From the sequence record NC_103192.1: 64,000 nucleotides of DNA. One strand, written 5' to 3'. Below the pieces are notes generated by a model. The model saw nothing but the letters and a program-made list of their open reading frames with translations, did no database searches and was not told where the DNA came from. Made by a program: the position numbers and the translations under genes. Within the stretch, counting starts at the first letter, position 1. Every line of letters begins with the position of its first letter. Positions 4,126 through 61,550 of this stretch are shown one piece after another. The stretch is from a phage.

Positions 4126-4521
4126 ATGAATAAGAACGTACGCCGCATCATGAACGAACTGGCAAACGATGAAAAAATTATTGACATGCATTTAGTCAAC
4201 ATTTGCCGCCGTTGTGTAACATATAACAACCGCGCCGCAAAAGCGCGTGAGATGAACGCAAAAGGCACCTTAAAGCCCTTTCAGGTGGTTGTAAAATCTA
4301 TAACTAATGCAGCAGGCCAGGCGCATGACCACAACAACGAGAGCGCTAATATTGATCCGTCTTACGTAATGAAACGGATCCGGACTTGCAAGAATAAAGA
4401 GCAGGTGTATAACGTCATAGATTGGCTGGACTCCCTGGGCGATGTGGTTTACAATAGGTTTTCTGCAGCTATCGAGATCCAGCTTGACAGATTGGACGGG
4501 AAAGTACTAAAAACTTATTGA
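4126..4521 (+). CDS. Hypothetical early protein
   Basis: Start moved to the ATG after SD aaggaaaaag; leader has GC hairpin ggcgggaatgtttcccgcc. Confidence 0.5.
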   Translation: MNKNVRRIMNELANDEKIIDMHLVNICRRCVTYNNRAAKAREMNAKGTLKPFQVVVKSITNAAGQAHDHNNESANIDPSYVMKRIRTCKNKEQVYNVIDWLDSLGDVVYNRFSAAIEIQLDRLDGKVLKTY

Positions 4522-4568
4522 GTTTATTTTTAGATGGCCTTGACACCAGGGCCATCAATAAAGTAAAC
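4521..4568 (+). promoter_or_regulatory. Repeated promoter element with -35 TTGACA in the loop of a GATGGCC/GGCCATC hairpin (copy 1)
   Basis: 48-nt element aatttatttttagatggccttgacaccagggccatcaataaagtaaac; near-identical copies at 5151 and 8887. Confidence 0.55.
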
Positions 4569-4600
4569 TAATCTCAGTTAGGCTAAAAGGAGGCTTGAAG

Positions 4601-4720
4601 ATGAGCACTACACGCCAGCACACAAAGGTAACCATCATCGTTTGCATCATTGGTTACATCCTGGCGCAAATGTTGATGGGTAGCGCCAATGATTTCGCAA
4701 AATTTTTCTTAAACTTCTAA
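4601..4720 (+). CDS. Small hydrophobic peptide (39 aa)
   Basis: Strong SD aaaggagg; predicted single TM helix VTIIVCIIGYILAQMLM; below the ORF-track size cutoff. Confidence 0.4.
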   Translation: MSTTRQHTKVTIIVCIIGYILAQMLMGSANDFAKFFLNF

Positions 4721-4800
4721 TTGACAAGCTAACTTAAATCAGTATAATACTAAGCACATAAACGGGAAAACTTCCCAGAACACCAAAAGGAGAAAACATT

Positions 4801-5151
4801 ATGAATACTTCCATCACTATGACCGCCGAAGAAAAAGCCCTGCAGATCGCCGCTCTGAAAAAACAGATTGCAGAACTTGAAGACAAGATCGACAATTTTG
4901 AAATCGACGAAGACAAACACGACGATAAATATGATGAATGGTTAGACGAGATCTACGGCGAAATCATGATCGGAAACATTTCTTTTCTTCCGTCGCGTAT
5001 CCTCAAGGAGCTAGATCCTATCGCTTACCGCTGCGGATTTAGCGACTACATCGACAGCCTAGATATTGAGGACGATGAAGAATACCAGGAATTGCAGACA
5101 GAGCTCGAAGAAGTGAAAGAGGAGCTTTCAGAGCTGGAAGAAAACGAGTAA
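4801..5151 (+). CDS. Hypothetical acidic protein
   Basis: SD aaaaggagaaaac; leader hairpin; very acidic, heptad-like C-terminal half. Confidence 0.5.
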   Translation: MNTSITMTAEEKALQIAALKKQIAELEDKIDNFEIDEDKHDDKYDEWLDEIYGEIMIGNISFLPSRILKELDPIAYRCGFSDYIDSLDIEDDEEYQELQTELEEVKEELSELEENE

Positions 5152-5198
5152 ATTTATTTTTAGATGGCCTTGACACCAGGGCCATCAATAAAGTAAAC
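5151..5198 (+). promoter_or_regulatory. Repeated hairpin-promoter element (copy 2)
   Basis: Same 48-nt element as at 4521. Confidence 0.55.
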
Positions 5199-5240
5199 TT
5201 TATACTGTTAACACTTAACCAATACAGAGGAGTTAAAACC

Positions 5241-5486
5241 ATGGCCGCACTAATTACCAAATATTATGCCCCTACCAACACCAAAAGCGCCCGTATCATG
5301 GTAAAAGGCTTCGGACGTAAAAAGGTGTACACCTGGGATTATTCCCTAGACATGGAAGACAACTACACCAACGCGATGACAGATTTTATTAATGAGCTGA
5401 ACACGCGGATCTTGACAAATTATAAAATTACCGATATTGCCTATGTAGGGGAAGGCGGGATCTGTTTTGTCGGTATCGTCAAATAA
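5241..5486 (+). CDS. Hypothetical early protein
   Basis: SD agaggag upstream of ATG. Confidence 0.5.
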   Translation: MAALITKYYAPTNTKSARIMVKGFGRKKVYTWDYSLDMEDNYTNAMTDFINELNTRILTNYKITDIAYVGEGGICFVGIVK

Positions 5487-5562
5487 ACTGTTTTTTCGGT
5501 GGTCCTGGTAGCAGGGCCATCTATAAAGATAGTTTATCAACACAATGAAAGGAGAAAGTAAC

Positions 5563-5910
5563 ATGATCAGCGGGGCAAGTTTTATTATTGGCGCTATTGC
5601 TACGGCTTTAATTGTAAACAAGATCCAGGATAAAAAGGAAAGTACCGCCCTTGCAGAATATCCATTTTGGACATTCAACGATAATGAAGATTATATTGTA
5701 AAGTATAAAAATAAAGAAGGTGACCAAGTAACACCGCGACCGATCCCGGCTTACAAAATGCAGGAAACACTGTACCGCCTGGAAGCGGGGGGCGCAAAAA
5801 TTGTAGACTTTTGGGGATACGATCACACAGATCAGGAAGTTATAAAGCGCCGTATCCGGGCTATTCAGGCCAATATCGAAGTTAGTAAGGGGGGAATATA
5901 TGAAGATTAA
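5563..5910 (+). CDS. Hypothetical membrane protein
   Basis: Start moved to the ATG after SD aaaggagaaag; N-terminal TM segment ISGASFIIGAIATALIV. Confidence 0.45.
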   Translation: MISGASFIIGAIATALIVNKIQDKKESTALAEYPFWTFNDNEDYIVKYKNKEGDQVTPRPIPAYKMQETLYRLEAGGAKIVDFWGYDHTDQEVIKRRIRAIQANIEVSKGGIYED

Positions 5911-6097
5911 TTTTGAAAAGATTGTAAAGCGATCTCATGATTCCGAAGAGCTGCCGGAACGCCGCCAGCGTAACAATAAACTGAATAAGCCAAAAAGATT
6001 TGGGAAGATCTGGCGGAATCATTATGATCGCAAATTACCGGGCCTGCTTTTGGAACGTGAACGACAGGCGGAACGATACCGCCACAAAGGCAAATAA
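5900..6097 (+). CDS. Hypothetical basic protein
   Basis: Overlaps upstream gene; Arg/Lys-rich. Confidence 0.4.
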   Translation: MKINFEKIVKRSHDSEELPERRQRNNKLNKPKRFGKIWRNHYDRKLPGLLLERERQAERYRHKGK

Positions 6098-6105
6098 CAA
6101 CCAAC

Positions 6106-6133
6106 GCCCCGCCATTGTGCGGGGCTTTTTATT
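6106..6133 (+). terminator. Rho-independent terminator
   Basis: gccccgccattgtgcggggc hairpin followed by a T-run. Confidence 0.6.
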
Positions 6134-6278
6134 TCTATCCTACGAATAGCGCCCCTGGTTGGCCCCACAAACGCCACAAAAGCCCCTACCTATGCAATCC
6201 CCTTTCTTAATCTGAAAACATCACCCAGGGCCGTTTTATGGCGTTAAAAATATTATTGACAGTTATTTTATTTAAAGC

Positions 6279-6307
6279 TTGACACCTTGGAATAGTCCGG
6301 ATATACT
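6279..6307 (+). promoter_or_regulatory. Sigma70-like promoter
   Basis: TTGACA, 17 nt, TATACT. Confidence 0.5.
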
Positions 6308-6342
6308 AGCCACATCAAAGCAAGAAGGAAGGAGTAAACGCC

Positions 6343-6603
6343 ATGCGTAAATTGAAAAATTTTGATAAGGTCGATGCAGTACTAAATAATTTTTACTACT
6401 GCAATAATAAAGCCGTTTGGTGGCGTGATAGTTCCACCGATAAAGTTAAAGCGCGCTTTCTCCAGGGGCACTGGCAAGGCCGCCCAGTGATTAAAATCTT
6501 GGGGCAATTGGTAGCGTTTAAAAATTGCCGCCGTGTTGATGACGTTGAAGAGATTTTAAACATTTTGCGCCACAATAATTTAAAAAATAGTGTTGACAAG
6601 TAA
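6343..6603 (+). CDS. Hypothetical early protein
   Basis: SD aaggaaggag. Confidence 0.5.
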   Translation: MRKLKNFDKVDAVLNNFYYCNNKAVWWRDSSTDKVKARFLQGHWQGRPVIKILGQLVAFKNCRRVDDVEEILNILRHNNLKNSVDK

Positions 6604-6675
6604 GTATCAATAAGTATACTTAAACACAGGCGGGAAAACTTCCCGCCACTAACAAAGAAAATAGGAGAAAATATC

Positions 6676-7299
6676 ATGACCACCGTTAACATTACCACAG
6701 GTTACAATTTAGCTTTCGACGTGCTGACCGACGAACAAAAAGAAAAAGCCGTTGAAATGGTCCGAGAAAGAGAAGAACACAGCGGGGATAACTTTTTTGC
6801 AGAAAGTGTAATTGAAGACTATAAAGAATATGTCTTTCCAGAGTATGGCCTTGAAGATACCAAGGTACATTGGTCCGGCTTTTGGTGTCAGGGTGACGGC
6901 GCGTCAATCAGTGCGGAAAACGTGGATTTAGAAAAATTCTTGCGTAAAGTCAAGTCTCTGACTAAATTTCGCTCAATTCGTCACTTGTTCGGCACAATGC
7001 ACGATGGCGAACTATCCGCAAGTGTTGAGCGTGATCCATATAGCCGCTATAGCCACGAAAACACTGTAAACGGGTACATCGATACTACATGGCTAGACCT
7101 GACCGCCAAACAAGAAGATAAAGTGGAAGATTTGGAAGAACTGATCACCGAGACGGTACGGGAGCTATCCCGCAAGGTTTACGTAGACTTGGAAGCGGCC
7201 TATTTGGAGCAATTCACATCTGAAAACCTGATCAACCTTATTAAGGACAATGATTGGCGGTTTGATGTAGATGAACATGGCGAGATGACTTTTTCATAA
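6676..7299 (+). CDS. Hypothetical early protein (207 aa)
   Basis: SD aataggag; leader GC hairpin ggcgggaaaacttcccgcc. Confidence 0.5.
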   Translation: MTTVNITTGYNLAFDVLTDEQKEKAVEMVREREEHSGDNFFAESVIEDYKEYVFPEYGLEDTKVHWSGFWCQGDGASISAENVDLEKFLRKVKSLTKFRSIRHLFGTMHDGELSASVERDPYSRYSHENTVNGYIDTTWLDLTAKQEDKVEDLEELITETVRELSRKVYVDLEAAYLEQFTSENLINLIKDNDWRFDVDEHGEMTFS

Positions 7300-7388
7300 A
7301 TAAAGTGTTGCAATAACCTAAAAACCTGCTATATTAAAACTCAAGGGGGCAAGACGTTTGCCCCACACAAAACAAAGAGGAAAACATT

Positions 7389-7769
7389 ATGAAAAACACT
7401 ACTAAAGCTATTGACACCGTTATGTTTAACCTGGTTACCTTTCGCGAGGATATGAAAGATCTTCCACGTGAAACAGTGTGCGATCACATTGAAAACTATC
7501 GCAAACTAATCAAAGAGTTGCCTTTAAAACGTGACCAGTATGCGGCTAACGCTATGCTCAACGCCATGATCAAAAAGATGATTCAGTGTGATTTAACCCT
7601 GGCCTATGATTATGCAGGTGGTCGTTTTGCAGTATATAATCAGCCCGTGCCTGGTATGGGCACCACCGAAGAATTGCACGCGCTCAATCTAAAACAAGAC
7701 GTGTGGGATAGTATGCCTCGCGTGGTGGTGTGGGCAGAAAGCGGAAAGATTTACGGCGATAATTTTTAA
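7389..7769 (+). CDS. Hypothetical early protein
   Basis: SD aaagagg; leader hairpin gggggcaagacgtttgcccc. Confidence 0.5.
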   Translation: MKNTTKAIDTVMFNLVTFREDMKDLPRETVCDHIENYRKLIKELPLKRDQYAANAMLNAMIKKMIQCDLTLAYDYAGGRFAVYNQPVPGMGTTEELHALNLKQDVWDSMPRVVVWAESGKIYGDNF

Positions 7770-7780
7770 TCAAGAACAGA

Positions 7781-7806
7781 CGGCGGCATATTTGCCGCCT
7801 TATTGT
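7781..7806 (+). terminator. Rho-independent terminator
   Basis: cggcggcatatttgccgcc hairpin followed by ttatt. Confidence 0.55.
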
Positions 7807-7835
7807 TAAACAGAACTGCAAAAGAGGTACATAGA

Positions 7836-8207
7836 ATGGAATTTATTATTTTGGCTGTATTAGTTGCCTTGTTTAACGCCTGGATCGCTGGCAAGATGGG
7901 TAGATCCGCCTTTTTATGGTTTATTATATCTATTTTCCTGGGGGTGGTTGCAACTATTGTATTAGTTATCCTTGCAATTGTTGACAAGGGCGATAATAGA
8001 AAGGGTAAAGTATTTTCAGACCTGTACGACGCTCAAACGTTTGTCAACGCATATTATAGTGATCTTCCAGTCTCCCTACGCTGCAGCCTGGCACAACAAG
8101 TTTTCGATGAGGCTAAAACCAGAGATCAAGCCCATGAGATATGTTTAACTGAGGCGGATCGCCTATTTGAGAGGAATAGAAAATATGTGGGCCAACCGTT
8201 TAAATAA
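7836..8207 (+). CDS. Hypothetical membrane protein
   Basis: Two predicted TM segments (IILAVLVALFNAWIA; FLWFIISIFLGVVATIVLVILAIV). Confidence 0.45.
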   Translation: MEFIILAVLVALFNAWIAGKMGRSAFLWFIISIFLGVVATIVLVILAIVDKGDNRKGKVFSDLYDAQTFVNAYYSDLPVSLRCSLAQQVFDEAKTRDQAHEICLTEADRLFERNRKYVGQPFK

Positions 8208-8430
8208 TGCCACGTTAATTAATCCCTTTAGTGAAGATTTGAAGCCAGCCGCCTGGCGTGATGGATTCAATACCGAACGCTTTATTTTCAGGCCTGATCT
8301 TGAGGAATTTTATAACAATGGATCGAACAACGACAGAGATAATTTTTCTTGTGATGTGCGTAGTGATGGTACTCCTGGGGGCCATTGTAAACCACGTCAC
8401 TACTACCAGGAGGAAAGGGGGAGACGATGA
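8185..8430 (+). CDS. Hypothetical early protein
   Basis: ORF overlapping upstream gene; start is a guess. Confidence 0.35.
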   Translation: MWANRLNNATLINPFSEDLKPAAWRDGFNTERFIFRPDLEEFYNNGSNNDRDNFSCDVRSDGTPGGHCKPRHYYQEERGRR

Positions 8431-8546
8431 CACCCAAGGATAAGCCACGCACCGATAAGGCGCGCCGTGTTATGGTGTGGCTGGAGATCATCGCCCTTGA
8501 AATATTGTTAGGCGTAGGGATGTACTTTATCGCTATAAGTAACTAA
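8427..8546 (+). CDS. Small membrane peptide (39 aa)
   Basis: ATGA overlap with upstream gene; SD ggaggaaaggggg; C-terminal TM; terminator directly downstream. Confidence 0.4.
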   Translation: MTPKDKPRTDKARRVMVWLEIIALEILLGVGMYFIAISN

Positions 8547-8547
8547 G

Positions 8548-8580
8548 AACGGCCCCCGATCATGGGGCTTATCTTTTTAA
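8548..8580 (+). terminator. Rho-independent terminator
   Basis: ggcccccgatcatggggc hairpin followed by a T-run. Confidence 0.55.
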
Positions 8581-8685
8581 AAAATTTTTCTTCTAGGGTG
8601 TTGCAATCCGGTCCGAGATGTGGATAATGACAATCAACGGGGAGCCAATCCCCACCAACACAAAAAACCAGAAAGGAGAAACAAA

Positions 8686-8886
8686 ATGAGCAACAATATC
8701 CGCGTTATTAACTTCAAAAAAGAAGAAAAAATTGCCGTGCTGATTGACGGTCAAGAAATCTTCAAGGGCGATTATGAAGATCATCAAACGGCGATTAGTA
8801 TCACTCGCGTGATCGGTTACCATAATTTCTACCCCCAAGGCGCTGAGGCAGCAGTTAAACGAATCAAAGAGATTGTAGGCCTGTAA
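8686..8886 (+). CDS. Hypothetical early protein
   Basis: SD aaaggag; leader hairpin ggggagccaatcccc plus CA-rich linker. Confidence 0.5.
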   Translation: MSNNIRVINFKKEEKIAVLIDGQEIFKGDYEDHQTAISITRVIGYHNFYPQGAEAAVKRIKEIVGL

Positions 8887-8935
8887 AATTTATTTTTAGA
8901 TGGCCTTGACATCAGGGCCATCAATAAAGTAAATT
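8887..8935 (+). promoter_or_regulatory. Repeated hairpin-promoter element (copy 3)
   Basis: Same 48-nt element as at 4521 and 5151, with one C-to-T change in the loop. Confidence 0.55.
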
Positions 8936-8977
8936 TAAACCCTGTTAAAATAATCAGTGCAAAAAGGAGTAATGATC

Positions 8978-10749: not shown

Positions 10750-10838
10750 TAAAATAGCTTGACACTGTTTTTTATTCTGGTATAGTTTATCACATAGGGC
10801 GGCAATAGTGCCGCTCACAACTAAAAAGGGAAATCATC

Positions 10839-11033
10839 ATGGCGCTTAAAAAACTAACAAGCAATACTCGTTGGGATGAAATCGACGGGGAAGTTTACAT
10901 TTTTGCCCGTAAACCAGGGGATCAAAAATGGTCAAAGGCTTTTACTTGCCACCCTGCAACAATAGATCTAATAAAAAGTAAAGGTTTACGTGAAGCAGTA
11001 GCGAGAAGTTTACTGATCCCTTATAAAAAATAG
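10839..11033 (+). CDS. Hypothetical early protein
   Basis: Promoter TTGACA at about 10757; conserved leader stem-loop gcggcaatagtgccgc. Confidence 0.5.
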   Translation: MALKKLTSNTRWDEIDGEVYIFARKPGDQKWSKAFTCHPATIDLIKSKGLREAVARSLLIPYKK

Positions 11034-11093
11034 TTTGACAATATCGCACTAACCTTTAAAATGTTCTCTGTTACGTATCTTTAAAGGTGTAAC

Positions 11094-11777: not shown

Positions 11778-11861
11778 AATAGCTTGCACAATGTATCTGA
11801 TAGTGTAAGATGTATCACGTAGGGCGGCAATGGTGCCGCTCACAACTGGAAGGAAAACACC

Positions 11862-12865: not shown

Positions 12866-13008
12866 TACAACAAGTTACGGTCAGGGGGTAATAAAGCCCC
12901 TTGATCACATAAAAATTATGCTATCCCTGGTTGACAGGGATCGGCAGTTTTGCTATATTCTTTTTTGAAGGGAAGTTGTAAGAAAATTAACTAAGAGGTA
13001 AAAACACC

Positions 13009-58069: not shown

Positions 58070-58144
58070 ACCAGTAAAAACTTAAACATCTGTACTATAA
58101 GGATTTGTATGTTTTATGTTCGCTCTGGAACAGAGGTTAGTAAC

Positions 58145-58225
58145 TGTCCGTGATACGGACACTACTGTCCGTCACGCGGACACATCTGTCCGTAATACGG
58201 ACACTAACTGTCCGTGATACGGACA
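58145..58225. repeat. Four 17-bp palindromic iterons (TGTCCGTGATACGGACA and variants) at 21-22 bp spacing
   Basis: Copies at 58145, 58166, 58187, 58209. Confidence 0.85.
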
Positions 58226-58229
58226 CATA

Positions 58230-60600: not shown

Positions 60601-60675
60601 GCCACCCAGTGCCCTGTTAGCTTAGTGGATAAAGCAGCGGCCTTCTAAGCCGTTGACACTGGTTCGAGTCCAGTA
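60601..60675 (+). tRNA. tRNA-Arg (anticodon TCT)
   Basis: Hand-folded cloverleaf: acceptor GCCCTGT/ACGGGGT, anticodon loop CTTCTAA, T-loop TTCGAGT, CCA encoded. Confidence 0.7.
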
Positions 60676-60815
60676 CGGGGTGCCAAGTTCTTTTTAATGT
60701 AGCTTACTTTAGCAGAGTAAATCTTCGGCAAGTGGCGGTAACCACTTTACCGATACCTCATAGTTAGTGGTGAGAACACTAGCTATTTTAAAAAGAATTT
60801 AAATATTAGTATTTA

Positions 60816-60903
60816 GGTGAGTTAATTCCGTAGGGGTAGCGGGGCAGACTGTAAATCTGTTATCATTGCGATTCGGGTGGTTCGACTCCATCACTCACCA
60901 CCA
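60816..60903 (+). tRNA. tRNA-Tyr (anticodon GTA), long variable arm
   Basis: Acceptor GGTGAGT/ACTCACC, anticodon arm CAGACTGTAAATCTG as in E. coli tRNA-Tyr, T-loop TTCGACT, CCA. Confidence 0.7.
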
Positions 60904-61017
60904 AATTTATATTTTTAAATGCATAAATCATACAGATAATGGCATTGATATTTATCGTCGTTTATACTAGTCACTAACTGCTCGAAAATCAGTGTCATTA
61001 TCAGTATTGTTTATAAA

Positions 61018-61108
61018 AGAGGGTAGGGAGCAATGGTGCTCAAGCGGTCTTGAAAACCGTCCCGTTGAGGATGACTCGATGATGGTTCGATTCCATTATC
61101 CTCTGCCA
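61018..61108 (+). tRNA. tRNA-Ser (anticodon TGA), long variable arm
   Basis: Acceptor AGAGGGT/ATCCTCT, anticodon arm CGGTCTTGAAAACCG, T-loop TTCGATT, CCA. Confidence 0.7.
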
Positions 61109-61206
61109 TATTGTTGACTATGTAATTAAGCGAAAGCCGGAAGCAGAACCGGATTATCAAATGTTACAGTCGTCATCGCCGACTAGCAACATGGTCAACA
61201 TACTGA

Positions 61207-61305
61207 GCTAGGTAAGCCCTTTGGCAAGGGCGAGGATTTTTAATCCTGAAAATAGACGAGGTAGTCGTTGAATACATAGGTGGTTCGATTCCATCACCTA
61301 GCACC
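61207..61305 (+). tRNA. Atypical tRNA-like element (type II shape, irregular anticodon arm)
   Basis: Acceptor GCTAGGT/ACCTAGC, D-arm GCCC/GGGC, T-loop TTCGATT, long variable arm; anticodon region is either a 5-nt loop or a 4-bp stem with TTTTTAA loop; no CCA. Confidence 0.35.
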
Positions 61306-61310
61306 TTTTT

Positions 61311-61386
61311 GCTGATGTAGCACAATTGGTAGTGCAATTGATTTGTAATCAATAGGTTGCAGGTTCAAGTCCTGCCATCAGCACCA
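61311..61386 (+). tRNA. tRNA-Thr (anticodon TGT)
   Basis: Acceptor GCTGATG/CATCAGC, anticodon loop TTTGTAA, T-loop TTCAAGT, CCA. Confidence 0.75.
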
Positions 61387-61387
61387 T

Positions 61388-61462
61388 GGCCCTGTAGCTG
61401 GAAGGTTCAAGCAAGCGACTCATAATCGCCAGACGGTGGTTCAATTCCACCCAGGGCCACCA
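61388..61462 (+). tRNA. tRNA-Met or Ile2 (anticodon CAT)
   Basis: Acceptor GGCCCTG/CAGGGCC, anticodon loop CTCATAA, T-loop TTCAATT, CCA. Confidence 0.75.
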
Positions 61463-61473
61463 AATAATAAATA

Positions 61474-61550
61474 CTCCGCGTAGCTCAGCTTGGTAGAGTG
61501 CCTGATTTGGGATCAGGAGGTCGAGTGTTCGAATCACTCCGTGGAGACCA
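61474..61550 (+). tRNA. tRNA-Pro (anticodon TGG)
   Basis: Acceptor CTCCGCG/CGTGGAG, anticodon loop TTTGGGA, T-loop TTCGAAT, CCA. Confidence 0.75.

Follow-up and report, generated by a model that had tools for sequence, protein, structure and literature searches.

Promoter-early stem-loops (PeSLs) are known from the T4-like phages RB49/phi1, PST/T4 and nt-1/KVP40 (Arbiol et al. 2010, PMC2839356; Comeau et al. 2014, PMC4122927). They combine a sigma-70 promoter and a stem-loop with an A/T-rich tract, precede a Shine-Dalgarno sequence (SD) and an ATG, and lie among the orphan genes of hyperplastic regions, where they mediate insertions and deletions (indels); "half" elements also exist (PMC2839356; PMC4122927). 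In the model proposed for them, the expression of orphan genes and their shuffling between phages are both due to small regulatory repeats (PMC2839356; PMC4122927). Other structures that bear on the present case are the RNA targets of RNase III from Escherichia coli, which typically span about two helical turns and in which an internal loop confines the cut to one strand, so that a 3' hairpin remains and is protective (PMC1540722). Here we describe a repeated intergenic element of the first kind in a 64,000-nucleotide (nt) stretch of the phage record NC_103192.1 (hereafter the window, to which all coordinates refer unless another genome is named). The window derives from an rV5-like E. coli phage (Vequintavirus, with 93-94% identity to rV5-like phages over the region). 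Judged by its sequence, the element is a PeSL-like composite of promoter and stem-loop, that is, a known type in a new phage lineage and with a new geometry. We consider it probable that it acts as a dual-coded, PeSL-type cassette boundary in the early, hyperplastic region of this phage. This extends the PeSL idea beyond the T4-like phages to the rV5-like group and probably also to the phi92-like group.

The likeness to PeSLs covers several aspects. In both cases there are short repeated intergenic elements that run from the stop codon of the upstream gene to the SD and ATG of the next one, and that combine an A/T-rich tract and sigma-70-like -35 and -10 hexamers with an overlapping G+C-rich stem-loop. 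Both occur in clusters in a variable early region with many indels among relatives, next to small genes without known function, and the indel junctions between close relatives fall inside the elements (here two kinds of fusion between copies and a cassette shared with phage KKE7M, see below). One of the copies described here lacks the -35, as "half" PeSLs lack part of the promoter. However, the phage belongs to the Vequintavirinae and not to the Straboviridae, and PeSLs have so far been described only in T4-like phages. The geometry is also different. Among 13 intergenic regions of RB49 that we folded, the 10 with TTGAC have a G-rich stem-loop of 6-8 bp located 3' of the -35 (within the spacer in 7, overlapping the -10 in 3), whereas here the -35 is at the apex, a tract resembling an UP element pairs with the -10 region, and the whole promoter is contained in one bipartite hairpin of 18-23 bp. 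Besides, there are only four copies per genome, the copy reduced to the structure is conserved with compensatory changes, and the gene context argues against efficient termination.

Copies of the element and the promoter sequence

A 24-nt core, GATGGCCTTGACAYCAGGGCCATC, matches the plus strand of the window without mismatch at 4533-4556, 5163-5186 and 8899-8922, and never in 100 dinucleotide-preserving shuffles. The original prediction, made from the letters of this DNA, had described a 48-nt promoter element in three copies, each between a stop codon and a gene, and this much is confirmed by the core. By repeat finder and alignment the repeat is 51-58 nt long. Copies 1-3 start 0-3 nt past the stop codon of the upstream gene, and a ribosome-binding site and ATG are located 30-40 nt downstream of each. 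The count of three was too low, since the repeat finder returned a fourth, diverged copy (5485-5535, 71% identity), which directly follows the stop codon TAA 5484-5486, precedes a gene with its start at 5545, lacks TTGACA and has the same fold. A covariance model built from the four copies and run unfiltered over the window found no further diverged ones, and the same type of scan in a complete 143-kb relative gave exactly four copies, all within 4.4 kb. All nine proteins encoded next to the elements fall into PHROGs of unknown function. The copies and their parts are as follows (promoter and hairpin assignments are predictions).

4518..4575, plus strand: copy 1 (stop codon TGA 4519-4521, downstream ATG 4601)
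4523-4530 / 4560-4567, plus strand: copy 1 hairpin, basal arms; apical stem 4533-4542 / 4547-4556, tetraloop 4543-4546
4540-4545 and 4564-4569, plus strand: copy 1 promoter, -35 TTGACA and -10 TAAACT; predicted start ca. 4575-4577
5148..5205, plus strand: copy 2 (stop codon TAA 5149-5151, bipartite hairpin as in copy 1, downstream ATG 5241)
5150-5160, 5170-5175 and 5194-5199, plus strand: copy 2 promoter, UP-like tract AAATTTATTTT, -35 TTGACA and -10 TAAACT
5483..5540, plus strand: copy 4, without promoter (13-bp basal and 10-bp apical stems, loop GUAG, dG -28.2 kcal/mol, downstream ATG 5545)
8884..8941, plus strand: copy 3 (stop codon TAA 8884-8886, -35 TTGACA 8906-8911, -10 TAAATT 8930-8935, downstream ATG 8978)

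The element is carried by ca. 120 GenBank phage records, usually in three places detectable by BLAST, and the four positions are kept in most of these genomes. In the record of phage Gotham, two promoters annotated with PhagePromoter (L001 2358-2387 and 6101-6130) coincide with copies 2 and 3 by coordinate offset only; the rV5 record has none of these promoters annotated, and the paper on the rV5 genome, with its lists of promoters of the sigma-70 type and of terminators, leaves this repeat unmentioned (PMC3606486). Scanning IMG/VR with the bare palindrome GATGGCC-N10-GGCCATC gave unrelated chance palindromes only, and scanning for CAGGGCCATCWATAAAG gave two Vequintavirus contigs only. An Rfam search at a permissive E-value returned chance-level matches and no family for the element. 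We also observed that 17-22 GenBank records of the series MG0656xx, labelled "Campylobacter phage" and UNVERIFIED, share 91-93% identity with the present rV5-like phage of E. coli in this region, and their assignment to a Campylobacter host looks doubtful.

In the promoter scan, copies 1-3 present TTGACA, an 18-bp spacer and TAAACT or TAAATT, i.e., 10 of the 12 sigma-70 consensus positions. The stretch AAATTTATTTTTA sits 7 nt 5' of TTGACA, and the tract listed above for copy 2 fits AAAWWTWTTTT, which we take for the distal portion of the UP-element consensus in E. coli. The combination AAAWWTWTTTT-N9-TTGAC occurs with no mismatches at copies 2 and 3, and with up to two mismatches it has 11 matches in the window against 1.3 expected. 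The other early promoters of the region are of the type TTGACA-16/17-TATAAT, also with A/T-rich upstream tracts. For comparison, 57 sense-strand copies were drawn from a set of 17 genomes and contigs; they gave an alignment of 40 distinct ungapped 58-mers, 32 of them from copies 1-3. In these 32 the loop bases A26 and C27 (positions 4 and 5 of the -35) are invariant, whereas the neighbouring loop bases vary (A, T or C in column 28, which makes the sixth -35 position A, T or C; C or T in column 29). Within the -10 hexamer only position 5 varies (C/T), and all 40 sequences have T52. In one relative the loop is shorter by 1 nt and a 1-nt insertion further 3' brings the spacing back to 18 nt; another has only the insertion. 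That TTGAC and TAAAYT are kept while the adjacent loop bases change fits a sigma-70 promoter, and reading copies 1-3 as putative early promoters of the host sigma-70 type, acting at the DNA level, is supported at the sequence level. In every orthologue of copy 4 seen, CCTTGACAC is replaced by CCTGGTAG and the -35 is thereby missing, and the promoter scan found no sigma-70-like site of at least 9/12 between this copy and its next genes.

A different arrangement with a similar theme was observed elsewhere in the window, where a 7-bp hairpin of another sequence (12919-12946, ATCCCTG-GTTGA-CAGGGAT) surrounds the -35 of a sigma-70-like promoter (12931-12959, TTGACA-17-TATATT).

The hairpin on the sense transcript

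As sense RNA every copy folds into one bipartite hairpin, consisting of an A/U basal helix of 8-13 bp, an internal loop of 2x3 nt, a G+C-rich apical helix of 10 bp and a tetraloop. The original prediction had placed TTGACA in the 10-nt loop of a single short stem of 7 bp. That stem is present, but it reaches 10 bp with one G-U pair, the TTG of the -35 forming its last three pairs and ACA(C/T) the tetraloop, and the flanks also pair, so that the whole element becomes one hairpin. The 5' arm of the basal helix is the T-tract TTTATTTT and the 3' arm is AAAGTAAA, which holds most of the -10 hexamer. Fold energies range from -22.5 to -25.1 kcal/mol for copies 1-3 (z from -5.2 to -6.8) and from -22.5 to -28.2 kcal/mol for all four (z from -5.2 to -7.0 against shuffles), while the ordinary early promoters of the region fold with only -3 to -14 kcal/mol. 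The pairing is also maintained across the relatives. Over the 18 common pairs and 40 sequences, 98.9% of the 720 pair cells are standard pairs, compared to 38-57% after displacement of the 3' partners by 1-3 columns. At three pairs of the basal helix both sides have changed (6-50 as UA/CG, 8-48 as UA/GU/AU/GC and 9-47 as AU/UA), none of 500 shuffles matched the covariation score, and copy 4 keeps every pair through wobble and compensatory changes.

The two strands are not equivalent. G-U wobbles are present at pair 10-46 in all 40 sequences, at 23-32 in 31 of them, and at 17-38 and 21-34 in copy 4. The sense RNA folds better than the antisense because these wobbles turn into A-C mismatches on the opposite strand: the mean fold energy is -24.0 kcal/mol for the sense and -15.2 kcal/mol for the antisense RNA, and the sense is the more stable in 39 of the 40 sequences. 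For copy 4 the values are -26.2 and -10.6 kcal/mol. This strand asymmetry, together with the wobbles and the covariation, points to a structure on the sense transcript and not to a cruciform or a palindromic protein site. Moreover, copy 4 has kept only the hairpin, which implies that the hairpin itself is under selection. The hairpin thus appears to have been selected on the sense RNA and not as a DNA cruciform.

A plain promoter, with a palindrome that is either incidental or active at the DNA level (as a cruciform, or as the site of a dimeric phage or host regulator that would cover the -35 to shut the early promoters), would account for an inverted repeat overlapping the -35, as found in many operators. 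It would also agree with the DNA folds of copies 1-3, in which both the plus and the minus strand do better than shuffles. However, the DNA folds have little stability, and for copy 4 the minus strand (z -1.6) cannot be told from shuffles. Copy 4 retains the fold without a -35, and its half-sites GGTGGTC and GGCCATC form no DNA palindrome, yet they pair as RNA. Added to the strand-specific wobbles, the antisense folds weaker by 9-16 kcal/mol and the compensatory changes in the basal helix, this makes the explanation very unlikely, and the suggestion in the original prediction that cruciform formation could modulate promoter use found no support for the same reasons. We also considered, and rejected, a hairpin promoter of the N4 type, an extruded DNA hairpin used by a virion RNA polymerase, as the present structure is strand-specific and contains wobbles and as the use of the host RNA polymerase has been proposed for rV5-like phages (PMC3606486).

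The design is found in a second element of unrelated stem sequence. In phage KKE7M (PQ356295.1; L124 5462-5530), right after a stop codon, there is a hairpin of -22.5 kcal/mol that contains the promoter sequence TTGACA-17-CATAAT. TTG forms the last 5' bases of a 12-bp apical stem, ACA opens the loop, and the -10 lies in the 3' arm of an A/T basal helix. It is a single copy and is kept in ca. 97 records of phi92-like phages (Stephanstirmvirinae). To our knowledge, it has not been described before.

As the hairpin comes directly past each stop codon and is very stable, it might be taken for a genuine terminator. This was the reading of the original prediction and is that of the published PeSL description: upstream transcripts would be stopped, and each gene would be expressed from its own promoter only. 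A UUU just past the basal helix in three of the four copies speaks for it, as does the report that one RB49 PeSL stem-loop lowers downstream lacZ in a reporter like the strong terminator rrnB T1 (PMC2839356); the RB49 stem-loops that we folded likewise lack U-tracts. However, the basal helix is A/U-rich, and the U-tract of an intrinsic terminator is found neither after the G+C-rich apical stem (AAUAAAG follows) nor after the full hairpin (at most UUU). A terminator scan of the window flagged no copy of the element, and it did flag the following site.

6106..6135, plus strand: canonical intrinsic terminator (hairpin and T-run 6106-6125), GCCCCGC-loop-GCGGGGC and then TTTTTATTT

The context of the promoter-less copy 4 also bears on this question. 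It lies between the gene 5241-5486 and the genes 5545-5910 and 5900-6097, which are followed by that terminator. Since no sigma-70-like site of at least 9/12 lies between copy 4 and these two genes, they need transcription that reads through the copy. The simplest transcription unit would start at the promoter of copy 2 and pass through copy 4 to the terminator at 6106-6125, in which case copy 4 could not terminate efficiently. Efficient termination by the element seems unlikely, and a promoter combined with a true terminator is unlikely as an explanation of the whole. What stands of that earlier claim is that the same nucleotides carry a promoter sequence on DNA and a stable hairpin on read-through RNA; the terminator role is not supported. 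Partial attenuation, or destabilisation of the RNA by the hairpin, is possible. Annotators have reason not to call such hairpins terminators by default.

The best structural fit for the hairpin is a substrate of the RNase III type, and cleavage by RNase III is, at this stage, an inference from the fold. With 8-13 bp and 10 bp around the 2x3-nt internal loop, it has the size described for these substrates (PMC1540722). Like the signals between the early genes of T7 (e.g., R1.1; Pertzev & Nicholson 2006, PMC1540722), it is an intercistronic hairpin of ca. two turns with an internal loop between upper and lower stems, located on the sense transcript of early genes, and cleavage in the loop is predicted from the fold to leave a 3' hairpin that would protect the upstream mRNA. 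Unlike them, it has a G-C pair flanking the internal loop, it coincides with a promoter sequence, and the two share no sequence similarity.

Loss, gain and exchange of small gene cassettes

The copies are direct repeats and can as such serve as sites of homologous recombination. Two cassettes are delimited by them.

4570..5199, plus strand: two-gene cassette between copies 1 and 2 (630 bp; genes 4601-4720 and 4801-5151, internal consensus promoter 4721-4748)
5204..5537, plus strand: one-gene cassette between copies 2 and 4 (335 bp; gene 5241-5486)

The 630-bp cassette is absent from an IMG/VR contig (L133) and from phages ECP32, ime and phiWec189. In these genomes a single, fused copy1/copy2 element is present, with the sequence upstream of copy 1 on one side and that downstream of copy 2 on the other. 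The 335-bp cassette is absent from phage 241Ecol014PP, which has a fused copy2/copy4 element with the crossover within ATAAAG. The sharing of cassettes reaches beyond the subfamily, as KKE7M (a Justusliebigvirus of another subfamily) contains a 478-bp segment 90% identical to 4720-5197 of the window, comprising the promoter 4721-4748, the gene 4801-5151 and copy 2; the similarity stops inside the element and the flanks are unrelated. In addition, the copies within a given genome tend to agree in the loop base at column 28 (A in the window and T in the majority of relatives), which suggests gene conversion among copies. The recombinant genomes show that the element is a site at which cassettes are lost or gained, presumably by homologous recombination, a role of the repeats that the original prediction had missed.

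Other indels of the region end elsewhere. Two deletions in the evolved phage rV5_ev146 (4117-4612 and 6048-12145 in window coordinates) have junctions that are not in elements. In YP-6 (L126) a deletion of 6588-7297 removes a gene for 207 aa (an LTXXQ-motif protein in one annotation). Its two junctions are each in the A/T-rich part of an ordinary promoter (6593 and 7308), so that plain promoters can also bound indels. By this comparison, the elements are favoured but not the sole recombination substrates, and not every indel is mediated by them. One might go further and see in the repeats primarily a recombination or mobility signal, i.e., the ends of small mobile gene cassettes, to which promoter and hairpin would be secondary. 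The two kinds of copy-to-copy fusion, the cassette ending in an element in another subfamily and the PeSL mini-circles reported in RB49/phi1 (PMC2839356) would all agree with this. However, the four positions are conserved in most of the genomes, no recombinase or endonuclease gene is associated with the elements, all flanking genes being of the PHROGs without known function, and the junctions at ordinary promoters or other non-element sites fit general homologous recombination at any repeat. We regard this alternative as highly improbable.

The dual-coded boundary that we favour would work as follows. On DNA, copies 1-3 would be early promoters for the host sigma-70 polymerase (UP-like T-tract, TTGAC(N), 18-bp spacer and TAAAYT), each driving the next small gene. 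When transcription from upstream promoters reads through, the 48-58 nt of sense RNA would fold into the hairpin of 18-23 bp right after the upstream stop codon, in which the T-tract would pair with the -10 region as basal helix and the -35 region would supply the uppermost apical pairs and the tetraloop. Transcripts from the element's own promoter, starting 5-8 nt past the -10, would begin 3' of the hairpin and would thus be free of it. The hairpin would most likely serve for intercistronic processing or protection of the 3' end, or as a partial attenuator, during or after transcription; an mRNA stabiliser similar to the repetitive extragenic palindromes (REP) can be accommodated as a version of 3'-end protection that does not involve RNase III. 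Finally, as direct repeats, the four copies would be sites of homologous recombination and gene conversion at which small genes are deleted, inserted and exchanged.

Several points weigh against this reading. The match to the promoter consensus is only moderate, given the 18-bp spacer, the -10 TAAACT or TAAATT and the TTGACT found in most relatives. Furthermore, TTG and the greater part of the -10 are under constraint from pairing as well, so that, as far as the alignment goes, only the AC of the loop and the T of column 52 count as independent evidence for the promoter. In the literature searched we found no data on transcript 5' or 3' ends for the Vequintavirinae. The number of events behind the compensatory changes is small, most of them belonging to the divergence of copy 4 from copies 1-3 and to differences among copy 4 orthologues, and the covariation statistics should not be over-read for this reason; gene conversion could also keep the copies alike without selection. 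Copy 1 of Gotham (L001 1719-1771) has a 5-nt deletion, GGGCC, that takes out the 3' arm of the apical stem and destroys the hairpin, which indicates that at least one copy can lose the hairpin in a viable phage and be dispensable. As to the role on RNA, RNase III may meet a catalytic antideterminant in the G-C pair that borders the internal loop (PMC1540722), and the RB49 element reported to lower lacZ without a U-tract means that a missing U-tract does not exclude attenuation.

In a bolder version of the favoured reading, which seems to us rather unlikely, the overlap would be there by design, the UP tract doubling as the 5' basal arm, the -35 as the apex and the -10 as the 3' basal arm of an RNase III-type hairpin. 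Such a module of 50 nt would have three jobs, namely to start its own transcript, to cut or cap the upstream one and to provide homology for the transfer of cassettes between phages, and the phi92-like counterpart would then be a convergent "self-insulating cassette boundary". The comparative evidence is in any case cleaner than that for PeSLs, with two kinds of natural fusion, a cassette found across subfamilies and a promoter-less paralogue that points to a hairpin selected on the sense RNA. If the role on RNA is processing or 3'-end protection, the element would be a compact natural insulator that combines a promoter and an RNA boundary in ca. 50 nt, and as such it would be of interest to phage engineering and synthetic biology.

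Other repeats and a transfer RNA (tRNA) cluster in the window

A 35-nt repeat, TATCAC(A/G)TAGGGCGGCAAT(A/G)GTGCCGCTCACAACT, which also forms a hairpin, is found at 10788-10822 and 11813-11847. Its first copy lies just downstream of a promoter at 10759-10786, and the stretch 10795-11044 is 96% identical to a segment of KKE7M. Four tandem units of 21-22 nt, TAACTGTCCGTGATACGGACAC, occupy 58141-58226, each with the palindrome GTCCGT-N3-ACGGAC, and could be a protein-binding array or an origin-like feature. Three direct repeats of ca. 47-65 nt lie at 2455-2640, in a stretch without convincing genes. Lastly, 60611-61550 holds a cluster of six tRNA genes, including a 99-nt tRNA-like gene (61207-61305) to which ARAGORN assigns a four-base anticodon.

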